From a virus (Duplodnaviria; Heunggongvirae; Uroviricota; Caudoviricetes): 33,504 nucleotides of DNA. The number at the start of each line of letters is the position of its first letter. The stretch's first letter is position 1. Under the pieces are notes generated by a model that was given only the letters and a program-made list of their open reading frames with translations, was not told where the DNA came from and did not search any database. The translations under genes were made by a program, and so were the position numbers. Positions 504 to 32,142 of the stretch are shown here, one piece after another. The stretch lies in the IMG/VR virus record IMGVR_UViG_2695420456_000021, one strand, 5' to 3'.

Positions 504-582
504 TAGGGTGTCACCAGTAGGGGCTTTCAACGGTACAATGCGGGTTTGAGCGGCATAAATTACCACTGAAAGCCCTTAAACG

Positions 583-1596
583 TTACTCTACTGTGGACAC
601 TGTGTGGACACTCTCGGCCTCAGTACCACCTCTTAGCGGATTAAGAGAAATGGCGTCCTGAAGGTACTCTGGCGCAAAGTGAGCGTAAACCATAGTTTGC
701 TCAATCCGCGTGTGACCTAGTATCCGTTGTAGCGTGATAATACTTCCTCCATTAATCATGAAATGAGTGGCAAAGCTGTGCCTTAGTGCATGTGTGGCTT
801 GCCCCATTGGCAAATCCGGTTTTATTGCTTTCATTGTTCGTCTGAAGCGAGGGTAATCAGCATCAGGGAATAAAAAACCTCGTTTGTTATCCGCGATCAT
901 TTTGGCAACAGCCTCTGAGATCGGGACGGTGCGTGGTTTGTTTGTTTTCGTTTTAACAAACGTGACGCGGTTATGGATGATATTTTCTGCTTTCAAACGA
1001 GCTGCTTCTCCCCAACGTGCTCCAGTACTCAGGCAAAGAATCGCAATCTTTTTATTGTCGCCGTCAAGAGCAGCAAGCAGTAAGGCAATTTCTTCCTGCG
1101 TGAGATAGCCTGTGTCTGGTTTTTCCTCCTTAAGCCTTTTTGTCCCTCTGATAGGGTGCTCACCAAAGAATAACTCCGCTTCAATCAGGGCTGTAAACAT
1201 GCCGCTAATACATGTTAAATCACGATTGATACTCGAAGGTTTAATACCCTGACTTCTTCGGGTGGCGCAGTACTGGCTGATAAGCGATTTCGTAATTTGA
1301 AATGCGCATGGGTCATTCGTTATTTTTGTGAAGATTTCAATTTTTCCAAGATTAGATTTCCCATGCTCTTCGTGTTTACCCTTTAAATCCCACCAGATCT
1401 GTGTCAGCTCCGACAGACGTCGCTTGTCTGTTGGTTTTGATAGCCATTCTTTATTGTGGTGGTTGTACAACGTGTATTTCTCGAAAGCGACAGCTTCGCT
1501 TTTCTTATCAAACTTCCTACGGATGCGTTTTCCATTACGTCCAGTAGGGCGGATGTCCACTTCATATCGACCATCATCGAGTTTTTTGATTGCCAT
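583..1596 (-). CDS. int: Tyrosine integrase, P2 Int-like (337 aa)
   Basis: ORF track; same length as P2 Int; C-terminal catalytic-region motifs (HALRHSFAT ... LGH ... Y); adjacent to att core. Confidence 0.95.
   Translation of the reverse strand: MAIKKLDDGRYEVDIRPTGRNGKRIRRKFDKKSEAVAFEKYTLYNHHNKEWLSKPTDKRRLSELTQIWWDLKGKHEEHGKSNLGKIEIFTKITNDPCAFQITKSLISQYCATRRSQGIKPSSINRDLTCISGMFTALIEAELFFGEHPIRGTKRLKEEKPDTGYLTQEEIALLLAALDGDNKKIAILCLSTGARWGEAARLKAENIIHNRVTFVKTKTNKPRTVPISEAVAKMIADNKRGFLFPDADYPRFRRTMKAIKPDLPMGQATHALRHSFATHFMINGGSIITLQRILGHTRIEQTMVYAHFAPEYLQDAISLNPLRGGTEAESVHTVSTVE
592..610 (+). promoter_or_regulatory. Tandem TGTGGACA direct repeats, 11-bp period (putative Int arm-type binding sites, P' arm)
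   Basis: tgtggaca at 592-599 and 603-610; similar tandem pair (tgtggtca/tgtggac) on the opposite arm at 31913..31930. Confidence 0.4.
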
Positions 1597-1711: not shown

Positions 1712-2011
1712 TTAACCAGTCTTTTGACCGGAGTGGGGCGACGTTGTTTCGTTTTGCCCAAAGTGTGCGAGAGCGGGCGCAATTTGCCCGGACTCAGGAG
1801 CGATCTGATTGGTCATGAACCATAAAGTGTATTTGGTGAATTGTGGGGTCTGCAGGATGTTCATCATGACATCTGTTGGAGGTGTTGAACGACCACTTTC
1901 ATAGTAACTCAGCGTGCCATACGGAACCCCTGTTAAATCAGCAAGTTGTTGTCTGCTCAAATACTCTGATTTTCGCATTAAGACTATCTTCTCGCTTATC
2001 GTGTTTGACAT
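1712..2011 (-). CDS. C: Immunity repressor, P2 C-like (99 aa)
   Basis: ORF track; 99 aa as in P2 C; transcribed divergently from cox; HTH-like segment 'LSRQQLADLTGVPYGTLSYYE'. Confidence 0.85.
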   Translation of the reverse strand: MSNTISEKIVLMRKSEYLSRQQLADLTGVPYGTLSYYESGRSTPPTDVMMNILQTPQFTKYTLWFMTNQIAPESGQIAPALAHFGQNETTSPHSGQKTG

Positions 2012-2044
2012 GGTGTTTAGATCTCAATAGTATTTAGTTTAGAT
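2005..2044 (+). promoter_or_regulatory. Putative early promoter Pe (TTGACA 2005-2010, 17-bp spacer, TAGTAT 2028-2033) with two 8-bp direct repeats GTTTAGAT (2015-2022, 2037-2044) flanking the -10, as candidate C operator half-sites
   Basis: Motifs read from sequence. The 22-bp repeat spacing flanking the -10 matches my recollection of the P2 operator architecture. Confidence 0.5.
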
Positions 2045-2073
2045 GTAGATTGTTTAGTGCTTGGATGTGGGCA

Positions 2074-2103
2074 CTAAAAGGCATTATAAGGCATTAAACG
2101 CAA
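2074..2103. promoter_or_regulatory. Three tandem ~10-bp repeats (ctaaaaggca / ttataaggca / ttaaacgcaa), candidate Cox-box array overlapping a leftward -10 (TATAAT on minus strand at 2083-2088; putative Pc)
   Basis: Direct repeats read from sequence; the third unit fits the recalled cox-box consensus TTAAA(G/C)NCA; perfect TATAAT on the minus strand. Confidence 0.35.
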
Positions 2104-2125
2104 TTCATGAGGGCTGGAGGACGAC

Positions 2126-2401
2126 ATGAGCAAGCAAGTAACACTCATGACTGATGCGATTCCTTATCAGGAGTTCGCAAAACTAATAGGAAAATCGACA
2201 GGAGCGGTTCGTCGGATGATCGATAAAGGAAAGCTGCCTGTAATTGATATGACCGATCCACAATCAGCTTCAGGTCGTGCAGGTGAATATTGGGTATACC
2301 TTCCGGCATGGAATAACGGACTAAAACTGGCTTATGAAAGCCGCCCTAAAGAGATTCGTGACGGCTGGTTGATGTGGTTAGGTCTCGGTGAACCACGTTA
2401 A
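2126..2401 (+). CDS. cox: Cox-like excisionase/transcriptional regulator (91 aa)
   Basis: ORF track; 91 aa as in P2 Cox; first gene of the rightward early operon opposite C. Confidence 0.85.
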   Translation: MSKQVTLMTDAIPYQEFAKLIGKSTGAVRRMIDKGKLPVIDMTDPQSASGRAGEYWVYLPAWNNGLKLAYESRPKEIRDGWLMWLGLGEPR

Positions 2402-3893: not shown

Positions 3894-4165
3894 GTATTCG
3901 TATCGAAATTGGCGAACGTTATGTCGTTACCAGTGACAGCTTTCAGTTTATTCTCCACGAGAAAAAGAGAGCGGAAAGCGGTAAAAACGCCGGCCAGGAA
4001 TGGCTGGCGGTGGTTGGTTATTACCCGAAATTAAGCCAGCTCGTTTCCGGCCTGATGCATCACGATATTCTGACCGGAAGCGCAAAATCTTTTGCTGATT
4101 TAAACGCGCAGGTTGAGCAACTCAGCAAGCGTTGTTCAGAGGCTTTTGGCTCACATGGCCGTTAA
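3890..4165 (+). CDS. Hypothetical early-operon protein (P2 orf83 position)
   Basis: ORF track; overlaps upstream stop and the downstream A start. Confidence 0.5.
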   Translation: MSIRIEIGERYVVTSDSFQFILHEKKRAESGKNAGQEWLAVVGYYPKLSQLVSGLMHHDILTGSAKSFADLNAQVEQLSKRCSEAFGSHGR

Positions 4166-6230
4166 AGCCTCCGGGCGTTTTGTCCCTCCGTCAGCATTTG
4201 CCGCAGGCACCGGTAAGACGTTTACCGGTGCTTATGCATGGAACGCGCCACGCGAGGCCGTCGGGCGCGAAAGACCCCTTACACGTGACGAGATGCGTCA
4301 GGTGCAAGGTGTTTTATCCACGATTAACCGCCTGCCTTACTTTTTGCGTTCGCTGTTTACTTCACGCTATGACTACATCCGGCGCAATAAAAGCCCGGTG
4401 CACGGGTTTTATTTCCTCACATCCACTTTTCAGCGTCGTTTATGGCCGCGCATTGAGCGCGTGAATCAGCGCCATGAAATGAACACCGACGCGTCGTTGC
4501 TGTTTCTGGCAGAGCGTGGCCACTATGCGCGCCTGCCTGGAATGAATGACAAGGAGCTGAAAAAGTTTGCCGCCCGTATCTCATCGCAGCTTTTCATGAT
4601 GTATGAGGAACTCTGCGATGCATGGGTTGATGCGCATGGTGAAAAAGAATCGCTGTTTACGGATGAGGCGCAGGCTCACCTGTATGGTCATGTTGCTGGC
4701 GCTGCACGTGCTTTCAATATTTCCCCGCTCTACTGGAAAAAATACCGTAAAGGACAGATGACCACGAGGCAGGCATATTCTGCCATTGCCCGTCTGTTTA
4801 ACGATGAGTGGTGGATTAGTCAGCTTAAAGGCCAGCGTATGCGCTGGCATGAGGCGTTACTGATTGCTGTCGGGGAGGTCAATAAAGACCGTTCTCCTTA
4901 TGCCAGTAAACATGCCATTCGTGATGTGCGTGCGCGCCGCCAGGCAAATCTGGAATTTCTTAAATCGTGTGACCTTGAAAACAGGGAAACCGGCGAGCGC
5001 ATCGACCTTATCAGTAAGGTGATGGGCAGTATTTCTAATCCAGAAATTCGCCGGATGGAGCTGATGAACACCATTGCCGGTATTGAGCGTTACGCCGCCG
5101 CAGAGGGTGATGTGGGGATATTTATCACGCTTACCGCGCCGTCAAAGTATCACCCGACACGTCAGGTCGGAAAAGGCGAAAGTAAAACCGTCCAGCTAAA
5201 TCATGGCTGGAACGATGAGGCATTTAATCCAAAGGATGCGCAGCGTTATCTCTGCCGTATCTGGAGCCTGATGCGCACGGCATTCAAGGATAATGATTTA
5301 CAGGTCTACGGTTTGCGTGTCGTCGAGCCACACCACGACGGAACGCCGCACTGGCATATGATGCTTTTTTGTCATCCACGCCAGCGTAACCAGATTATCG
5401 AAACCATGCGTCGCTACGCGCTCAAAGAGGATGGCGACGAAAGAGGAGCTGCGCGAAACCGTTTTCAGGCAAAACACCTTAACCGGGGCGGTGCTGCGGG
5501 GTATATCGCGAAATACATTTCAAAAAATATCGACGGATATGCACTGGATGGTCAGCTCGATAATGATACCGGCAGACCGCTGAAAGACACTGCCGCGGCT
5601 GTTACCGCATGGGCGTCAACGTGGCGCATCCCGCAATTTAAAACGGTTGGCCTGCCGACAATGGGAGCTTACCGTGAACTACGCAAATTGCCTCGCGGCG
5701 TCAGTATTGCTGATGAGTTTGACGAACGCGTCGAGGCTGCTCGCGCTGCCGCAGACAGTGGTGATTTTGCGTTGTATATCAGCGCGCAGGGTGGGGCAAA
5801 TGTCCCGCGCGATTGTCAGACTGTCAGGGTTGCCCGTAGCCCGTCGGATGACGTTAACGAGTACGAGGAAGAAGTCGAGAGAGTGGTCGGCATTTACGCG
5901 CCGCATCTCGGCGCGCGTCATATTCATATCACCAGAACGACGGACTGGCGCATTGTGCCGAAAGTTCCGGTCGTTGAGCCTTTGACTTTAAAAAGCGGCA
6001 TCGCCGCGCCTCGGAGTCCTGTCAATAACTGTGGAAAGCTCACTGGTGGTGATACTTCGTTACCGGCTCCCACACCTTCTGAGCACGCCGCAGCAGTGTT
6101 GGATTTGATTGATATAGGGGTGGTTAGTTGGAATGATGCTGAGGTGATGACAGTTCTTAGGAAGAGGTTAAAAGATTACTCACGGGAATTGATGGTATTC
6201 AAGGGAAGGGCTAGCCAACGCCCAATCTGA
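4155..6230 (+). CDS. A: Rolling-circle replication initiator, P2 A-like (HUH endonuclease)
   Basis: HUH-like 'TPHWHMMLF' and tyrosine motif 'YIAKYISK'. Track start 4113 is a TTG; first in-frame ATG is 4155 (MAVKASGRF...). Start uncertain. Confidence 0.9.
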   Translation: MAVKASGRFVPPSAFAAGTGKTFTGAYAWNAPREAVGRERPLTRDEMRQVQGVLSTINRLPYFLRSLFTSRYDYIRRNKSPVHGFYFLTSTFQRRLWPRIERVNQRHEMNTDASLLFLAERGHYARLPGMNDKELKKFAARISSQLFMMYEELCDAWVDAHGEKESLFTDEAQAHLYGHVAGAARAFNISPLYWKKYRKGQMTTRQAYSAIARLFNDEWWISQLKGQRMRWHEALLIAVGEVNKDRSPYASKHAIRDVRARRQANLEFLKSCDLENRETGERIDLISKVMGSISNPEIRRMELMNTIAGIERYAAAEGDVGIFITLTAPSKYHPTRQVGKGESKTVQLNHGWNDEAFNPKDAQRYLCRIWSLMRTAFKDNDLQVYGLRVVEPHHDGTPHWHMMLFCHPRQRNQIIETMRRYALKEDGDERGAARNRFQAKHLNRGGAAGYIAKYISKNIDGYALDGQLDNDTGRPLKDTAAAVTAWASTWRIPQFKTVGLPTMGAYRELRKLPRGVSIADEFDERVEAARAAADSGDFALYISAQGGANVPRDCQTVRVARSPSDDVNEYEEEVERVVGIYAPHLGARHIHITRTTDWRIVPKVPVVEPLTLKSGIAAPRSPVNNCGKLTGGDTSLPAPTPSEHAAAVLDLIDIGVVSWNDAEVMTVLRKRLKDYSRELMVFKGRASQRPI
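6006..6025 (+). other. Candidate replication origin/nick site inside A (gcgcctcggagtcctgtcaa)
   Basis: From memory, P2/186-family ori lies in the 3' part of gene A with a sequence like this; not verified. Confidence 0.3.
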
Positions 6231-6402
6231 TTATGTTTTGTAATGATAAGTTAATGCTGAATGAGTGGCTCGCGCATAACCTTGCGGGAAAAAGAGCATA
6301 TTATGTACAGTTTTGAGGTTGGCTAGAGAGGATGGGCGAGATAGTTTGTGTTTGTGTGGGTTTGAGAAGTTTGATGCGCACATCAAAAATTGATACAACT
6401 GA

Positions 6403-6431
6403 TTGAAAAAATGATAAAAAAGCTGTTAAAT
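6403..6431 (+). promoter_or_regulatory. Putative sigma70 promoter for the cargo cassette (TTGAAA, 17-bp spacer, TTAAAT)
   Basis: Hexamers read from sequence about 25 bp upstream of ATG 6456; AT-rich context makes chance matches likely. Confidence 0.3.
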
Positions 6432-6455
6432 GCGTCAGTTTTCTAAGGGGGGAAG

Positions 6456-7586
6456 ATGAAAAAAATAACCAAGAGAGAAAGAGAGAGAGATATTTTACGA
6501 TCCTATTTACATCGTACAGGAAGAGATGTTGTATCTGCAGGGCGCTCTAAGATTAATCCTATTTCAAAAGCATCAAAAATAAATCGTTGGATAAATGCGC
6601 AAATTAAAGATGGATTAAATTGCGAAATAAGGAAAAATAGAGACCTTTTCCTTACTTTACCTAAAAAGATGAACTTTTCAAGTAATTACCATCGTACAAT
6701 GCAGGCCATACAAACGATTAGGCATCTTACGGGGCGGAAGATATTTAATAACCAATGTTATCGTCTTTGTTTTGTTGACTTTTCGAAGATTGAATATATT
6801 TCTGCATCTGCCGCATTGGTATTGACCGCGGAATTATCAAAATGGGATGATTCGGTAAGGCAACGCATTCGCCCAAAAGTGAAAACGTGGAATAAAAACA
6901 TACTCTCTCAATTTGATGAGTTGGGTTTTTTTGACTTATTTAGAAATAAAGATAGTTTTGAGCTTGAAAAAGAAAAGGAACCAAGTAATATCCGTTTTGT
7001 TAAGTATATGAAAGGACATTTACATGATGATGAAAAAACTCAGCATTTAAAAAAAGAAATAAAGCGTATTGTGGGAGAAGACCTTGGTAAATGGACTTTC
7101 CTATACAGTGGTTTGTCCGAAGCTATTACAAATGTTGTTCATCATGCTTATCCAGATAATAAAGGCTATCATGAGCATGATAAAAAATGGTATTTAACTG
7201 CTTCATATGATAGTTCAAGTAGAATAATAAAAGTAGTGTTTTATGATCAAGGTATTACAATTCCTGGGTCTTTGCCGGAATCTAAACTCCATGAAAAGGT
7301 TTTAAATTACCTTTCGAAGTTACCGCTTGCAGAACGAAAAAGAGATGAACAATTGTTAAAGGCTGCAGTTGAAATCAAACGTTCTAGTACGGGGGAAGAG
7401 GATCGGGGTAAAGGCTTGCAGGACTTGTTGGAGTTCATAAAGCAACGTGGTGAAGGTTATCTTTCAATTATGAGTGGTAAAGGCCTTTACAAATACTCAC
7501 AACATGATAAAAAATCTGAGGTAAAATCAGTAAGCTTCGCTCTGCCTGTTTGTGGTACACTTATAGTATGGAGTACAAAGCTATGA
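6456..7586 (+). CDS. Cargo protein 1 (376 aa): N-terminal STAS-like segment plus C-terminal GHKL/HATPase_c-like ATPase (anti-sigma-factor-kinase-like)
   Basis: RBS aagggggg before ATG. Motifs 'EAITNVVHHAY' (N-box-like), 'YDQGITIPG' (G1-like), 'DRGKGLQDL' (G2-like); N-terminal 'VDFSKIEYISASAALVL' resembles the STAS core. No Walker A. AT-rich. Confidence 0.75.
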   Translation: MKKITKRERERDILRSYLHRTGRDVVSAGRSKINPISKASKINRWINAQIKDGLNCEIRKNRDLFLTLPKKMNFSSNYHRTMQAIQTIRHLTGRKIFNNQCYRLCFVDFSKIEYISASAALVLTAELSKWDDSVRQRIRPKVKTWNKNILSQFDELGFFDLFRNKDSFELEKEKEPSNIRFVKYMKGHLHDDEKTQHLKKEIKRIVGEDLGKWTFLYSGLSEAITNVVHHAYPDNKGYHEHDKKWYLTASYDSSSRIIKVVFYDQGITIPGSLPESKLHEKVLNYLSKLPLAERKRDEQLLKAAVEIKRSSTGEEDRGKGLQDLLEFIKQRGEGYLSIMSGKGLYKYSQHDKKSEVKSVSFALPVCGTLIVWSTKL

Positions 7587-7972
7587 TTACTAGATTGGTT
7601 GCTAGCCTCATGAAAACATTGAAGATTGGTTCAGAGTTCTCGAAAGTTCCCAGAGGCCGCTATCGTACTGACGGGACAGCAAGTGGTGAACGGTTTAGAG
7701 AAGATTTCTTAAGGAAGCGTCTAAGCTTGCTTTCTGCTGGGGAAAAATTGCAGATAGTCATCGACGATGATGTCGAAGGATATGGTTCGTCTTTTTTGGT
7801 GGAGGGCTTTGCGGGCATGGTAAAATATGGATATATGCATGCCAATGAATTATTGTCTAAAATTGAAATTAAATATACTAATCCTGATTTTGATTTCTAT
7901 AAAAAGAAAATAGAACAATATATCAACGAGGCGCAGTTTAATTCGAAACGATATGAGCCAACAGTCGAATAA
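7583..7972 (+). CDS. Cargo protein 2 (129 aa): small STAS-like / DUF4325-like protein
   Basis: ATG 7583 overlaps the gene-1 stop as ATGA; ggag 8-9 nt upstream. Motif 'IVIDDDVEGYGSSFLVEGF'. Track start 7550 lacks an RBS. Confidence 0.65.
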   Translation: MITRLVASLMKTLKIGSEFSKVPRGRYRTDGTASGERFREDFLRKRLSLLSAGEKLQIVIDDDVEGYGSSFLVEGFAGMVKYGYMHANELLSKIEIKYTNPDFDFYKKKIEQYINEAQFNSKRYEPTVE

Positions 7973-8615
7973 TCCGATGTTTATTTTAGGTGAGAGTTCT
8001 GGTGAGTTCTCACCTAGTTTGCTTTTTATCAAGAAGGATAATGAAGAAGGCCTGAGTGCTACTCATGCAGTTAAGGATATTAATACGGTAATTGAAGTAG
8101 CTAGTTCTAATATTGTTGATGCAATACGGCATCCACCTGAAACGCCTATTTTATCGTCATCACTTATTACGGCTCTTATTAGTACTATTTGTGCGGCTAC
8201 TGCCGCATTTGCATATAATAAAGTCCATTGGCGTTCTGTTGTTAAACGGGAGACTAAAACCAAACTCCTGGAGAGTATTTCAGATGTGGTTAATGAGTTG
8301 CGTTCTGATGCTATTAGTTATTGGTTGAAGGGGTATTCAAAAAAGTCGGCGAAGTCTCTCTTAGAAGAGGAAATGAGAATTAAGGCGAGTTTAAATATAA
8401 TAAATTCGACTATAACAATATATGTTCAGCAAGAGTCGCGATGGAAAAGAAAGGATATTGAAGCTCAGTTAAGGGTTTTTCATGACGAACTTTTTGATAT
8501 TATAACAGGTGATGATTTTGAGTCTCAGGCAAGGAAGCAGGATAAGGCAAAGGTTTCTGCTATTTCTACAAAGTGTGTGGCTTTTCGCGTTTTATTAAAT
8601 ACCATCAAGTTTTAA
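7953..8615 (+). CDS. Cargo protein 3 (220 aa): predicted single-pass membrane protein, candidate effector
   Basis: Start overlaps the gene-2 3' end by 20 nt; hydrophobic stretch 'PILSSSLITALISTICAATAAFAY' (about residues 65-88); charged C-terminal region. Alternative start ATG 7977. Confidence 0.6.
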   Translation: MSQQSNNPMFILGESSGEFSPSLLFIKKDNEEGLSATHAVKDINTVIEVASSNIVDAIRHPPETPILSSSLITALISTICAATAAFAYNKVHWRSVVKRETKTKLLESISDVVNELRSDAISYWLKGYSKKSAKSLLEEEMRIKASLNIINSTITIYVQQESRWKRKDIEAQLRVFHDELFDIITGDDFESQARKQDKAKVSAISTKCVAFRVLLNTIKF

Positions 8616-8747
8616 GATAGCCATGCATGAGTTTGGTGCATGAAAATGCATGAGGTTTTACGAATTATTTTGGCTAAAATCAGCCTGCCCTGACTGGCTA
8701 CGGCAGATATCATGCACCTGCATTAAAACCGCCCCATGAAGCGGGCG

Positions 8748-20603: not shown

Positions 20604-22853
20604 ATGAGCACAAAATTCAGAACCGTTATCACCACTGCCGGTGCAGCAAAGCTGGCAGCGGCAACCGCGCCGGGAGGGCGGAAGGTCAACATTACCACGA
20701 TGGCCGTCGGGGATGGCGGTGGTAAATTGCCTGTCCCGGATGCCGGACAGACCGGGCTTATCCACGAAGTCTGGCGACATGCGCTGAACAAAATCAGCCA
20801 GGACAAACGAAACAGTAATTATATTATCGCAGAGCTGGTTATTCCGCCGGAGGTGGGCGGTTTCTGGATGCGTGAGCTTGGCCTGTACGATGATGCTGGA
20901 ACGTTAATTGCCGTGGCGAACATGGCCGAAAGTTATAAGCCAGCTCTTGCCGAAGGCTCAGGGCGTTCGCAGACCTGTCGCATGGTCATCATCGTCAGCA
21001 GTGTGGCCTCAGTGGCGCTGACCATTGACACCACAACGGTGATGGCGACGCAGGATTACGTTGATGACAAAATTGCAGAGCATGAACAGTCACGACGTCA
21101 CCCGGACGCCTCGCTGACCGCAAAAGGTTTTACTCAGTTAAGCAATGCGACCAACAGCACGTCTGAAACACTGGCCGCAACGCCGAAAGCGGTTAAGGCC
21201 GCCTATGACCTGGCTAACGGGAAATACACTGCGCAGGATGCCACCACAGCGCGAAAAGGCCTTGTCCAGCTCAGTAGCGCCACCAACAGCACGTCTGAAA
21301 CGCTCGCCGCAACACCAAAAGCGGTAAAGGCAGCATATGACCTTGCTAACGGGAAATACACTGCACAGGACGCCACCACAGCGCGAAAAGGTCTTGTCCA
21401 GCTCAGTAGCGCCACCAACAGCGATTCTGAAACGCTTGCGGCAACGCCAAAGGCGGTAAAGGCAGCATATGACCTCGCTAACGGGAAATATACCGCACAG
21501 GATGCCACCACAGCGCGAAAAGGTCTTGTCCAGCTCAGTAGCGCCACCAACAGTGATTCTGAAACGCTGGCTGCAACACCAAAAGCGGTGAAGTCTGCCT
21601 ATGACAATGCTGAAAAACGTCTTCAGAAAGATCAGAACGGTGCGGATATTCCTGATAAAGGACGCTTCCTGAGTAACATTAATGTTTACAGCAAAGGTGA
21701 AGTGGATAAGAAAAAGGGAATGCGAAAGTATTCGTTTGCAGCCCCTGCAAATGTCGTTGCCGGGAAGTGGTATCCCGTTATCTTTCGCCGTGCTGCCAGC
21801 CTTTCAGGAGAAATGGCATCCCGCGTCGTTATTTCCACTGGTTGTTATAACAGCGATTATGTAATGAATAACTGCGAGTTTAATGGCATGGTTATGCCCG
21901 GAGGCTGGACTGATCGTGGTTCATATGCGGCAGGTTATTTCTGGACGTATCAGACTAATGAGCGTTCAATTCATTCCATTGTTACAAGCCTGAAAGATGA
22001 TGATGTATGTAGTGTTTTTTATGTTGAAGCCAGAGCTTTCCCTGTACAAATTCTTGCAGAGGAAGGGCTAACGGTTATTGTTCCGACAGAGGATTATGTC
22101 GTCGGTCAGACGACATATAAGTGGGGGGCAACTAATCCCGCTACAGAAAGCACGAACGCGCAGGCTATTCTGGATTTTAAAAATGGGCGCGGTTATTACT
22201 GCTCACATCCATTTATTTCCAGCCTTTCAGGAAATGCTGCAACAGCAACAAAGTTAGCGAACGCAAGAAATATTAATGGTGTCAGATTTGATGGCTCTGC
22301 CGATATAAATATTAATACACTGGTTTCCAGAAACCGTGTTACTGCATTAGGTGGGAGCGTAAAGGGGACACCAGGTATTCAGATGTATGAGGCATACAAC
22401 AATGGCTACCCAACAGCCTATGGTAATGTGCTTCATCTCACTGGTGTAACCGCAGTAGGAGAGGGTGAGTTACTTATTGGCTGGAGTGGAACCAGCGGTG
22501 CTCATGCTCCGGCATATATTCGCTCCCGACGAGATACCACAGATGCTAACTGGTCTGGATGGGCGCAACTATATACAACTGCTCATAAACCCTCAGCGGG
22601 AGATGTTGGTGCATACACCAAAGCTGAGTCAGATTCACGTTATGTGAGAGACATGCGGCTGGGCGGTGCATCTACATATAAACCAGCAAATAATGGTATT
22701 ACATGGACGCATCAGGCTCCGTCAGGTTGCGTATATACCGGCATTATTGTTCAGGATACCGGCTCAAACTCTGCCGATAACATTGGTGGCGTATATTACA
22801 GACCGGTGCAGAAATACATTAACGGGACATGGTATAACGTGGCGCAGGTATAA
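20604..22853 (+). CDS. H: Tail fiber protein, P2 H-like (749 aa) with internal tandem repeats and compositionally distinct C-terminal domain
   Basis: ORF track; conserved N-terminus (MSTKFRTVITTAGAAKLAAA...); repeats at about 21109-21600; GC drops after about 21650. Confidence 0.9.
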   Translation: MSTKFRTVITTAGAAKLAAATAPGGRKVNITTMAVGDGGGKLPVPDAGQTGLIHEVWRHALNKISQDKRNSNYIIAELVIPPEVGGFWMRELGLYDDAGTLIAVANMAESYKPALAEGSGRSQTCRMVIIVSSVASVALTIDTTTVMATQDYVDDKIAEHEQSRRHPDASLTAKGFTQLSNATNSTSETLAATPKAVKAAYDLANGKYTAQDATTARKGLVQLSSATNSTSETLAATPKAVKAAYDLANGKYTAQDATTARKGLVQLSSATNSDSETLAATPKAVKAAYDLANGKYTAQDATTARKGLVQLSSATNSDSETLAATPKAVKSAYDNAEKRLQKDQNGADIPDKGRFLSNINVYSKGEVDKKKGMRKYSFAAPANVVAGKWYPVIFRRAASLSGEMASRVVISTGCYNSDYVMNNCEFNGMVMPGGWTDRGSYAAGYFWTYQTNERSIHSIVTSLKDDDVCSVFYVEARAFPVQILAEEGLTVIVPTEDYVVGQTTYKWGATNPATESTNAQAILDFKNGRGYYCSHPFISSLSGNAATATKLANARNINGVRFDGSADININTLVSRNRVTALGGSVKGTPGIQMYEAYNNGYPTAYGNVLHLTGVTAVGEGELLIGWSGTSGAHAPAYIRSRRDTTDANWSGWAQLYTTAHKPSAGDVGAYTKAESDSRYVRDMRLGGASTYKPANNGITWTHQAPSGCVYTGIIVQDTGSNSADNIGGVYYRPVQKYINGTWYNVAQV
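21109..21600 (+). repeat. In-frame tandem repeat, 132-bp unit (44 aa), about 3.7 copies, within tail fiber gene H
   Basis: Unit boundaries at 21241, 21373, 21505; encoded repeat '...SSATNS(T/D)SETLAATPKAVKAAYDLANGKYTAQDATTARKGLVQL'. Confidence 0.85.
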
Positions 22854-23384: not shown

Positions 23385-23570
23385 GTTGTATGAACTCTGG
23401 TGTGAGCTTACATATCTATGGCACAGAGTAAAGCCTAATCTGACAGTCCGCTCTGTGCCAGGAGCGGAAGTTGCCAAGAGAACTCTTGCAAAGGTATGAT
23501 AACGTAGGTGCTAAATAATCATGAACCATAATAAATTAAAGGTTTTTAAGTTAACTCTATGGCGTTTCTT

Positions 23571-23599
23571 TTGCATGATGATTTTTTATTTATTATATA
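23571..23599 (+). promoter_or_regulatory. Putative sigma70 promoter (TTGCAT, 17-bp spacer, TATATA) upstream of the Z/fun-position cargo gene
   Basis: Hexamers read from sequence; AT-rich context. Confidence 0.3.
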
Positions 23600-23665
23600 A
23601 AGCTTAAATATACATAATATTTAGCTTCATTTTTTTAGGTATTTTAAAGATTTAGAGGAATGTGA

Positions 23666-25009
23666 ATGGCTACTTATGCTTCTTATTTACCAGAATCACA
23701 AATTATCACTTTGTGCAAGGATTTCCCAGCGTTTACTGATCCTGAAAAATTAGATGGATTCATTAATCCAGAACAGTTTGGCGTGTTTTTTCATGAGTGG
23801 ATTCATTTTCTTCACAATATTTCCACAATTAATGGGTTTTCTATTTTTTGCACGCAAAACATCCTGTGGTCTAATTTTCGCTGGGCAATGGACAATCAGG
23901 ATGTATGTCTTGGTTCAAATGACATGGATCCAGCACATATCGAATCAAACAAAAATTTTCTCAGTTACATTCGTTCCAATAGGAGTCTGCATAAATGTAA
24001 CTTACCTTATTATGTAAAAGTAAACGACTTGTATTTTGAGGATGCAATAATCCATGACATGGAGGTTGCTGACGGTAGTGTTATATGTACATCATTAATA
24101 AAGTGTAGAATTTCTCATTCTGAAAACAAATACGATCTAGATTTAGGCGTGCTTGAAATACTTGAATCCGCAGCTTTTATGCTTGAATGTAAGTGTATTA
24201 ATGCGATGAATGGCTTCCCTCAAGAGGCACCCTTTTATCCGTATCATACTATCAAAGGCTTAGCAGCGAAAATTGCTCCGTCATTAAATGATGAAGATAT
24301 TATTTGTTGTATGTTAGCTTCTTTGCAATCTAATAACCCTCCCCAAGTATTATTCAATCTACTACATAAATGTGAATTATTACATTCTGATTGTAGGTAT
24401 GAACATCTAGTGGCGGAGGTGAAAAAACAATTAAGCGAACAAGATCAAATAATAAGCGAGTCACTTAATCAAATAATTCAAATGATTCCTGTTGATGAAC
24501 CGATGGGAAACTTTATCAAGCTTACTCTTAACAGAATAAGTAACAATTTGAACTATAGAAAGCAAAAACCGTTTTTTGAGTTAGATATAATAAAAAAAAT
24601 AGCAGAAAAAACTGAGTTTATGAATGAAGTAATACAGAAATTCGGTGGTTGCACTATCATCCAGGTAAGACATGGAGATGATAATGAACCACAGCGTGAT
24701 ATTATGTATGACTTTTGCTTACCTGAAAATAATGATTCAATTTTATTTGGTTCGAAAATGCTACGCGCTTGTTTTCACTTTATATTTATTCACTTTAAAC
24801 TTTCTGGTGAAATCATGAAGACAGAAGAATTAAATATTTCGCCGCGTAATAAATGCCCATTTTATACTGTTTGCTGTGCATCAATTCGAGCTAATAATAG
24901 TAATATCTGCGCTGAATCCCCTTGGAAATCAATGTCTATTGATGACAACAAAGGTTGTTATTATGCAGCAGCGATTAAAGCTACTAACCCACCAGTTTTG
25001 CCGGATTAA
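23666..25009 (+). CDS. Cargo protein (447 aa) with N-terminal HExxH motif and Cys-rich C-terminal half; possible Zn-dependent hydrolase, function unknown
   Basis: RBS agagga before ATG; 'FFHEWIHFLH' at residues 41-50 (codons about 23792-23806); many Cys pairs; about 32% GC in a sampled line; occupies the P2 Z/fun position. Confidence 0.7.
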   Translation: MATYASYLPESQIITLCKDFPAFTDPEKLDGFINPEQFGVFFHEWIHFLHNISTINGFSIFCTQNILWSNFRWAMDNQDVCLGSNDMDPAHIESNKNFLSYIRSNRSLHKCNLPYYVKVNDLYFEDAIIHDMEVADGSVICTSLIKCRISHSENKYDLDLGVLEILESAAFMLECKCINAMNGFPQEAPFYPYHTIKGLAAKIAPSLNDEDIICCMLASLQSNNPPQVLFNLLHKCELLHSDCRYEHLVAEVKKQLSEQDQIISESLNQIIQMIPVDEPMGNFIKLTLNRISNNLNYRKQKPFFELDIIKKIAEKTEFMNEVIQKFGGCTIIQVRHGDDNEPQRDIMYDFCLPENNDSILFGSKMLRACFHFIFIHFKLSGEIMKTEELNISPRNKCPFYTVCCASIRANNSNICAESPWKSMSIDDNKGCYYAAAIKATNPPVLPD

Positions 25010-25145
25010 GAATAGTGTTCTTTCTGATAAATATAAAATATTTAAGGTCAGGTCTGCTTATCGCTCAAAGCAGACTGTCAGATTTGATAACGTTTGGGCT
25101 ATGTAAACCGTCAGTTGGAAAATGAGTGAGTGCAAGTCAGGACAG

Positions 25146-31970: not shown

Positions 31971-31998
31971 TAAAAAATAAGCCCGTGTAAGGGAGATT
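31971..31998. repeat. attR core: 28-bp direct repeat, also the 3' end (terminator half plus U-tract) of cyaR
   Basis: Identical to 476..503. Confidence 0.75.
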
Positions 31999-32058
31999 AC
32001 ACAGGCTAAGGAGGTGGTTCCTGGTACAGCTAGCATTTTATGGGTTATGTTTTTCAGC
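31972..32058 (-). ncRNA. cyaR: CyaR (RyeE) small regulatory RNA, 87 nt, intact
   Basis: Reverse complement matches the E. coli CyaR sequence as I recall it (GCTGAAAAACATAACCCATAAAATGCTAGC ... CCTTACACGGGCTTATTTTTT); TGTGA half-site about 40 bp upstream, consistent with its CRP-dependent promoter. Confidence 0.85.
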
Positions 32059-32142
32059 GAAACGGATGATAACCTTAATAAATACAGCTGTATGTGATCG
32101 GTTTCTAAGAATTTTCCATCCGGGAAAAATAATCGAAATTAA

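Follow-up and report, generated by a model that had tools for sequence, protein, structure and literature searches.

The Region between C and cox in an Apparently Intact P2-Type Prophage Is Almost Certainly the Immunity Switch of Bacteriophage P2

Introduction

What does the short stretch of DNA between the genes C and cox control in the viral record IMGVR_UViG_2695420456_000021, and to which immunity group does the prophage that carries it belong? The region in question covers positions 2005-2103 of the window, that is, of the whole stretch of 33,504 nucleotides that was analysed. A preliminary description of the locus compared it with the Pe/Pc/O1-O2/cox-box architecture of bacteriophage P2 and supposed that the operator would reveal the immunity group. 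The analysis reported here leads to the conclusion that 2005-2103 is almost certainly the P2 lysis-lysogeny (immunity) switch, carried by a P2-type prophage that is apparently intact and belongs to the P2 immunity group. No result speaks against this reading. P2 itself is the closest known system, and the result is thus a re-identification of something already known, with no new member or variant.

The evidence is of two kinds. The sequence itself shows what the region is, where its motifs lie, that C and Cox are the P2 proteins, that the prophage is intact and that the region is conserved in Escherichia coli. For the binding of C and Cox, the footprints and the transcription start sites, we rely on earlier published work with the P2 proteins and with DNA that is nearly identical. 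We infer that the switch would be active in this particular host as well.

Identity with the P2 Switch and the Immunity Group

A megablast search against phage records found bacteriophage P2 (AF063097/NC_001895) to be 99.6% identical over the full span of positions 1600-2500. In these 901 nt, four SNPs separate the two sequences, at 1626, 2091, 2116 and 2476. Within the 176 nt of 1960-2135, only two bases differ from AF063097, namely 2091 and 2116, and at both of them P2 has A and the window has G. The matching switch in P2 is located at AF063097 25884-25987. The GenBank features of P2, carried over at a constant offset, land exactly on the motifs of the Pe -35, O1, the Pe -10, O2 and the Pc -10. 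The region thus does not merely resemble the P2 architecture; 1960-2135 is P2 sequence, two bases apart.

The C gene (1712-2011, minus strand) is an open reading frame annotated in GenBank as gpC immunity repressor, and it stands first in the lysogenic operon read from Pc. It turned out to be identical to P2 C in both DNA and protein (100%). The product of 99 aa matches the 'C protein' of PDB 2xcj/2l49 over its full length, and its sole Pfam match is the HTH (HTH_3).

An immunity group is defined by C identity of at least 95% (PMC3448106), and the C protein of the window is 100% identical to P2 C over 99 aa. When the operator repeats are compared with the known immunity types, both half-sites are found to be exactly the P2 sequence GTTTAGAT, and the W-phi half-site TATTGGTGAC is absent from the spacer between C and cox. 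Since the repressor is fully identical to P2 C and the operator is that of P2, the prophage belongs to the P2 immunity group. In this respect, the supposition that the operator reveals the group proved right.

It could be argued that the locus shares the P2 architecture and yet belongs to a heteroimmune class, like that of P2 Hy dis or of W-phi, which does not cross-react with P2 C. P2-like phages do exchange immunity modules, as exemplified by the phage vB_EcoM-720R8, in which C is 65% and Cox 84% identical to the proteins of the window. However, the complete identity of C, the exact GTTTAGAT in both half-sites at the P2 spacing and the lack of TATTGGTGAC in the spacer already refute this explanation at the level of sequence, and we regard it as exceedingly improbable.

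The Early Promoter Pe and the C Operator

The preliminary description proposed a rightward promoter TTGACA-17-TAGTAT with two direct repeats 22 bp apart around its -10 element, and both were recovered. The Pe -35 hexamer TTGACA at 2005-2010 (plus strand) is identified by the sequence, by a promoter scan and by the GenBank feature 'minus_35_signal, early promoter Pe'. On the opposite strand, this hexamer runs into the first codons of C. The Pe -10 hexamer TAGTAT at 2028-2033 (plus strand) is likewise identified by the sequence, the promoter scan and a GenBank feature, and the promoter as a whole scores 10/12 in the consensus promoter scan. The operator consists of two direct 8-bp half-sites GTTTAGAT on the plus strand, O1 at 2015-2022 (GenBank 'O1 repressor binding site') and O2 at 2037-2044 (GenBank 'O2 repressor binding site'), which are 22 bp apart and flank the Pe -10, as is characteristic of the P2 group. 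A GATC is present inside the O1 region at 2020-2023, and O2 spans the expected start site of Pe.

The function of such half-sites has been studied in P2 itself. O1 of P2 is GTTTAGAT, the centre-to-centre distance is 22 nt, and C binding and repression depend on both half-sites; when O1 is changed from GTTTAGAT to ATCCGAGT, C neither binds nor represses, and P2 C fails to repress constructs that have one half-site only (PMC1904263). Point mutations in the P2 half-sites show that a single mutation in one half-site is tolerated, but that in double mutants much of the repression is gone (PMC1904268).

The spacer is AT-rich, and it may be asked whether its repeats and hexamers are merely chance matches with no regulatory role. 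When the 114-nt C-cox spacer is shuffled 5000 times with its dinucleotides preserved, an exact direct repeat of at least 8 nt within 40 nt occurs in 5.4% of the cases, and shuffled versions of 1500-2700 yield just as many promoter-like sites in the promoter scan as the actual sequence does. A direct repeat of at least 9 nt within 40 nt, represented in the actual spacer by two copies of AAGGCATTA, is found in 1.2% of 5000 shuffles. Whereas 0.69 copies of GTTTAGAT are expected in the window, there are three, two of which lie in the switch. The motif TTTAG is present four times in the spacer on the same strand (2016, 2033, 2038 and 2053), with 14 occurrences on the whole plus strand, and four such motifs were reached in none of the 5000 shuffles of the spacer. 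Taken together, the motifs exceed chance. Besides, the sequence is identical to P2 sites that have been studied by mutation, footprinting and gel shift (PMC1904263, PMC3936717), and 287 of the 376 matched E. coli genomes have the 48-nt Pe/O1/O2 core without any change. The published mutagenesis of O1 and O2 already refutes an origin by chance, to which we assign no probability at all.

The operator pattern was also sought more widely. GTTTAGAT-N14-GTTTAGAT was found at 120 loci or more in genome contigs (596 Gb), in unrelated MAGs. These matches are uninformative because a pattern with 16 specified bases should occur hundreds of times by chance in 596 Gb.

The repeat search revealed an imperfect third copy of the half-site, GTTTAGTG, which matches at 7 of 8 positions, lies at 2052-2059 (plus strand) and is un-annotated in GenBank. 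In P2, the C footprint extends ~12 nt past O2, to ~+16 of Pe, and comprises four protected patches (PMC1904263). The position of GTTTAGTG suggests a secondary C contact at the downstream edge of this published footprint. The crystal structure of P2 C is a symmetric dimer, and the proposed model places one C dimer on each half-site, with specific contacts from one subunit of each (PMC2995052). The four TTTAG motifs may correspond to the four footprint patches, in which case two C dimers would make contact through all four of their subunits. The published footprints of both C and Cox reach beyond 2005-2103.

The Lysogenic Promoter Pc and the Cox-Boxes

Pe on the plus strand and Pc on the minus strand face each other between C (minus) and cox (plus), in agreement with GenBank. 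The leftward promoter had been described as a perfect TATAAT within three tandem repeats of ~10 bp. The first part holds without reservation: the Pc -10 TATAAT (plus-strand ATTATA) is present at 2083-2088 on the minus strand and coincides with the GenBank feature 'minus_10_signal, Pc promoter'. The second part holds for two near-perfect copies, AAGGCATTAT at 2078-2087 and AAGGCATTAA at 2088-2097; the third, ACGCAATTCA at 2098-2107, is degenerate.

The annotated Pc -35, ATGAAT at 2103-2108 (minus strand; GenBank annotation), is a poor match and is separated from the -10 by a spacer of 14 nt. No better -35 was found at 16-18 nt upstream, where the minus-strand hexamers are TCATGA, CTCATG and CCTCAT. 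The consensus promoter scan does not call Pc because its TATAAT lacks an acceptable -35. With a poor -35 and no better one at 16-18 nt, Pc is therefore expected to be intrinsically weak. In P2, Pc is indeed the weaker promoter, seen only when Pe is inactivated (PMC1904263).

The geometry of the -10 elements predicts that transcription would start near 2040 for Pe (plus strand) and near 2076 for Pc (minus strand). The two transcripts should then overlap by ~35 nt, at approximately 2040-2076. Primer extension on P2 gave the same figure of ~35 nt for the overlap of the Pe and Pc transcripts (PMC1904263).

The Cox site of P2 has been characterized in detail. The cox-box consensus is TTAAA(G/C)NC(A/C) with a spacing of 10-11 bp, the boxes overlap the Pc -10 and -35, and the site contains at least six boxes and at least 70 bp of protected DNA (PMC3936717). 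Cox occupies these boxes cooperatively and in a directional manner (PMC5009727). In the window, three co-oriented cox-box-like sites on the plus strand cover the Pc -10 and its spacer, with spacings of 10 and 9 nt. When compared with TTAAA(G/C)NC(A/C), TAAAAGGCA at 2075-2083 matches at 7 of 8 positions, TATAAGGCA at 2085-2093 at 6 of 8, and TTAAACGCA at 2094-2102 is a perfect match (8/8). Thus, three boxes are convincing by sequence against the six or more published per site, and further candidates match at 5-6 of 8 positions. The cox-box-like matches in 2060-2125 place this segment in the top 1-2% of equal-length windows of the sequence. The published Cox site, with its length of at least 70 bp, runs past 2103.

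Other kinds of elements were sought in and around the spacer. The IHF consensus WATCAANNNNTTR, with up to one mismatch allowed, has no match in the C-cox spacer, and its count in the whole window is at the level of chance. The 5' leader of cox (2040-2128) folds no better than shuffled sequences (z = -0.71). An 8-nt inverted repeat, 2053-2060/2071-2078, appeared in the repeat search; given this z value of the leader, it is unsupported as an RNA element. Rfam gave no family in the switch.

Cox, Int and the Prophage Context

The cox gene (2126-2401, plus strand) is an open reading frame of 91 aa and the first gene of the early (lytic) operon read from Pe, as in the P2 group. Cox is identical to P2 Cox in DNA and protein (100%), it matches PDB 4lhf (regulatory protein Cox) over the full length, and it carries the Pfam domain Phage_Cox (PF10743) with a value of 5.5e-48. 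Cox is known both as the repressor of Pc and as the directionality factor of excision. The gene int (583-1596, minus strand; GenBank annotation) encodes a tyrosine integrase which is 99.7% identical to P2 Int and follows C in the leftward Pc operon. A second Cox-binding region, in attL beside the core, was mapped from the GenBank protein_bind feature 'Cox' to 520-593 (plus strand), which corresponds to P2 24399-24472; it has cox-box-like matches at 521, 541, 567 and 576. Both the position of int after C in the leftward operon and the second Cox site beside the att core are traits of the P2 group.

The window as a whole represents a prophage of the P2 type and aligns colinearly with P2 (96-98% identity). 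Its gene order is the prophage order, int-C-cox-B-A ... cos ... Q-P-O-N ... D-ogr, and the genes following cox are P2 orf78, B and orf80-83. The attL core of 28 nt at 476-503 is a perfect direct repeat with attR at 31971-31998, and the repeat holds the whole 27-nt P2 attP core. The prophage adjoins yegR, and the CyaR sRNA gene (Rfam RF00112, 100.7 bits, 31975-32060, minus strand) runs with its 3' end into attR. Every essential P2 gene is there in full length; the encoded proteins are 93-100% identical to those of P2, apart from G, at 74%, and the C-terminal portions of H and A, which have diverged. Of the non-essential P2 genes, orf30, fun/Z, orf91, tin and old are absent or have been replaced. 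The cargo genes at the hotspots have no PADLOC or NCBIfam match.

These features bear on the possibility that a defective or cryptic prophage has left the motifs behind as relics, with a switch that controls nothing. Remnants of P2 are common at the same locus in E. coli genomes, and the loss or replacement of the non-essential genes just named, as well as the different C-termini of A and H, could be read in that sense. Yet the essential genes are full-length, both att cores are intact, and C, cox and int are uninterrupted; moreover, the regions that differ from P2 are known variable hotspots and the tail-fibre tip. We therefore consider a cryptic prophage very unlikely. The 28-nt att repeats and the full-length essential genes speak for a prophage that is apparently intact, and not a remnant, as the bearer of the switch.

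Natural Variation of the Switch in E. coli

The 176-nt segment 1960-2135 is present, with an identity of at least 98%, in ~404-405 of 5426 complete E. coli genomes, always on the chromosome. Among 40 evenly spaced matches listed, all full-length ones are at least 98.3% identical. A comparison of eight sampled genomes and P2 revealed variable sites in the spacer at 2012, 2020, 2045, 2091, 2116 and 2118. The variant at 2118, in the cox Shine-Dalgarno sequence, was observed in one genome. In FDAARGOS_1286, O1 reads GTTTATAT, and this genome has a variant C protein accession alongside.

The two positions at which the window departs from P2 are among these variable sites. Position 2091 coincides with the degenerate N of the middle cox-box and at the same time with -15 of Pc, and G at this position turns AAGGCATTA into a perfect 9-nt tandem repeat. 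The G allele carried by the window occurs in 165 of 404 E. coli genomes. Position 2116 is the first base of the cox Shine-Dalgarno sequence (2116-2120, plus strand), and G converts AGAGG of the reference P2 into GGAGG, which would be a stronger ribosome-binding site for cox; this allele is found in about 116-118 of ~404 genomes. Both G2091 and G2116 are ordinary, common natural alleles, and the window has the G/G haplotype.

It is conceivable, although we hold it to be rather unlikely, that the A/G polymorphisms at 2091 and 2116, together with the 2118 variant of the one genome, act as set-point variants of the switch. If this were true, heritable differences in Cox output and in the frequency of spontaneous induction would exist among the homoimmune P2 prophages of wild E. 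coli.

Proposed Working of the Switch and Its Significance

The published biochemistry of P2, applied to the window, suggests the following scheme. In the lysogen, C would be made, together with Int, from the weak leftward promoter Pc. C dimers bound to O1 and O2, the GTTTAGAT half-sites 22 bp apart that bracket the Pe -10, would keep cox, B and A off. Once Pe is open, its first product, Cox, would oligomerize on the directional cox-boxes spaced by ~10 bp. These boxes cover the -10 and the upstream region of Pc, and Cox would thereby turn off C and int. The strong Pe would probably also interfere with the weak Pc, because the promoters face each other and their transcripts are expected to overlap by ~35 nt. 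At high concentration, Cox would spread towards Pe and so regulate its own synthesis. An extension of the Cox filament towards Pe at higher Cox concentration has been reported for P2 (PMC3936717; PMC5009727), and such growth would explain the autoregulation. In addition, Cox would bind beside the att core and direct excision.

The value of these results is mainly one of annotation, i.e., the element is an intact prophage of the P2 immunity group. It follows from this assignment that the host should be immune to P2 and its homoimmune relatives. On the basis of established P2 biology, the host should also be non-UV-inducible and able to help P4-like satellites. The locus makes no open question more testable; the one modest lead is offered by the alleles of the cox ribosome-binding site and of the Pc spacer.

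Comparison with Other Switch Types

Coliphage 186 has convergent lytic and lysogenic promoters, pR and pL, as does the window, and between them Apl, a protein of the excisionase type, binds direct repeats that are separated by one helical turn (PMC7498355). The 186 repressor, however, is of a different, CI-type class (PMC1904268). Moreover, 186 has the establishment activator CII (PMC7708051), whereas P2-type switches have no CII-like protein (PMC1904263). A 186-type CI/Apl/CII switch was rejected for the window, since the repressor is the 99-aa P2 C and cox is followed by P2 orf78, B and orf80-83.

W-phi represents immunity class III. Its switch is of the C/Cox type, with convergent Pe and Pc, and direct-repeat operators flank the Pe -10, as in the window. 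The W-phi half-site, however, is TATTGGTGAC, present twice and 34 bp apart (PMC1904263), and W-phi Cox recognizes a 12-nt direct repeat and not cox-boxes (PMC1904263, PMC5009727).

The P2 Hy dis type is represented here by vB_EcoM-720R8 (ON470606), because this phage carries the published P2 Hy dis primer A3-44. It has the same gene order as the window, the same families of 99-aa C and 91-aa Cox, and face-to-face promoters, with the Pe -35 TTGACA at the same position. The flanks match the window. The N-terminal two-thirds of its C, with the HTH, are diverged, and the last 39 residues are nearly identical. The spacer is diverged except for the Pe -35 hexamer, and the mean column identity is 74% over 190 columns that include flanking coding sequence. 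The Hy dis half-sites are reported to be 26 bp apart and to flank the -35, not the -10 (PMC1904268). In the spacer of vB_EcoM-720R8, a search with a 6-nt seed found no direct repeat of at least 7 nt, which fits the published natural mismatch in the Hy dis O2. In terms of half-sites, then, the window has neither the TATTGGTGAC of W-phi in its spacer nor much in common with vB_EcoM-720R8 beyond the Pe -35. The comparison of vB_EcoM-720R8 with the window illustrates the modular swap of a repressor together with its operator. With bacteriophage P2, in contrast, the motifs, their spacing, the gene order and the C and Cox proteins are all the same as in the window.

Operator Motifs in the C-cox Switch

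The pentamer TTTAG occurs four times on the plus strand of the spacer between C (1712-2011, minus strand) and cox (2126-2401, plus strand), at 2016, 2033, 2038 and 2053, all within 42 nt, while the whole plus strand of the window holds only 14 copies. An arrangement of four same-strand copies was matched in 0 of 5000 shuffles. Two of the copies are the operator half-sites O1 (2015-2022) and O2 (2037-2044), one lies between them, and one is located downstream of O2. On P2, the footprint of the C repressor comprises four protected patches (PMC1904263), and their layout is the same as that of the four TTTAG motifs of the window.

At 2012-2020, 2034-2042 and 2049-2057, the C half-sites resemble cox-boxes when read as their reverse complements on the minus strand. 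Scored against the consensus TTAAA(G/C)NC(A/C), they match at 7 of 8 positions for CTAAACACC (O1), 6 of 8 for CTAAACTAA (O2) and 5 of 8 for CTAAACAAT, respectively. This likeness might be part of the reason why Cox spreads onto the early promoter Pe at high concentration. A separate feature of O1, absent from O2, is a GATC site of Dam methylation at 2020-2023 within an AGATCT palindrome, which is not known to have a role.

Variant and Partial Copies of the Switch

E. coli FDAARGOS_1286 (NZ_CP069893.1) carries a natural variant of the switch, with changes at the equivalents of window positions 1925, 2020 and 2118. Its O1 reads GTTTATAT, its C coding sequence has one base change and a different protein accession (WP_001350698.1), and there is an additional change in the Shine-Dalgarno region of cox. 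Operator and repressor may have co-varied in this strain.

In the record of E. coli strain CM2 (NZ_CP114891.1), two places match the switch. The genome holds no more than 56 nt of the switch, at 578534-578589, with 100% identity; they correspond to window 1994-2049, that is, from the -35 element of Pe through O2; no annotated feature lies underneath this match. This short stretch could be what is left of a switch, or a promoter cassette that was engineered.

Attachment Site

At the right prophage junction, the att core (31971-31998) and the 3′ end of the gene for the CyaR/RyeE sRNA (31975-32060, minus strand; Rfam RF00112, 100.7 bits, full length) overlap, and yegR forms the left flank. The prophage thus occupies the cyaR attachment site, where it regenerates the 3′ end of the sRNA.

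Divergent Genes and Hotspot Cargo

The N-terminus of the tail-fibre protein H (gene at 20604-22853) is as in P2, with residues 1-251 being 95% identical. Its C-terminal part differs and contains internal tandem repeats of ~65 aa (ATNS[TD]SETLAATPKAVKAAYDLANGKYTAQDATTARKGLVQLSS; window 21203-21461), and G shares just 74% identity with its P2 counterpart. Together, the H C-terminal part and the divergence of G suggest a receptor specificity unlike that of P2. At the P2 Z/fun hotspot (23468-25053), a single 447-aa ORF (23666-25009, plus strand) is found instead. It matches phrog_15354, a family of unknown function (1.8e-274), and has no match in Pfam, PADLOC or NCBIfam; in megablast, known P2-like phages match the flanks only.

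The replication protein A (4113-6230), whose ORF is shorter than that of P2 A, matches its P2 counterpart only over residues 1-673 of 761. The homology stops at 6098-6173, and the C-terminus is different. Three plus-strand genes take the place of the P2 orf91/tin/old hotspot (6098-8719). The product of the first (6456-7586; 376 aa) weakly matches histidine-kinase-like ATPases (HATPase_c_2, E 0.006; phrog_3364, unknown function), and that of the second (7550-7972; 140 aa) is a STAS-like protein (DUF4325, E 3.8e-5). For the third (7953-8615; 220 aa), the family search returned no convincing match, only a marginal PHROG one (E 0.007). The cassette matches nothing in PADLOC or NCBIfam, nor any of 50,697 phage records in megablast; of 5426 complete E. 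coli genomes, only 15 carry it. The cassette may be an uncharacterised anti-phage cargo that resembles a partner-switching (anti-sigma/anti-anti-sigma) pair.
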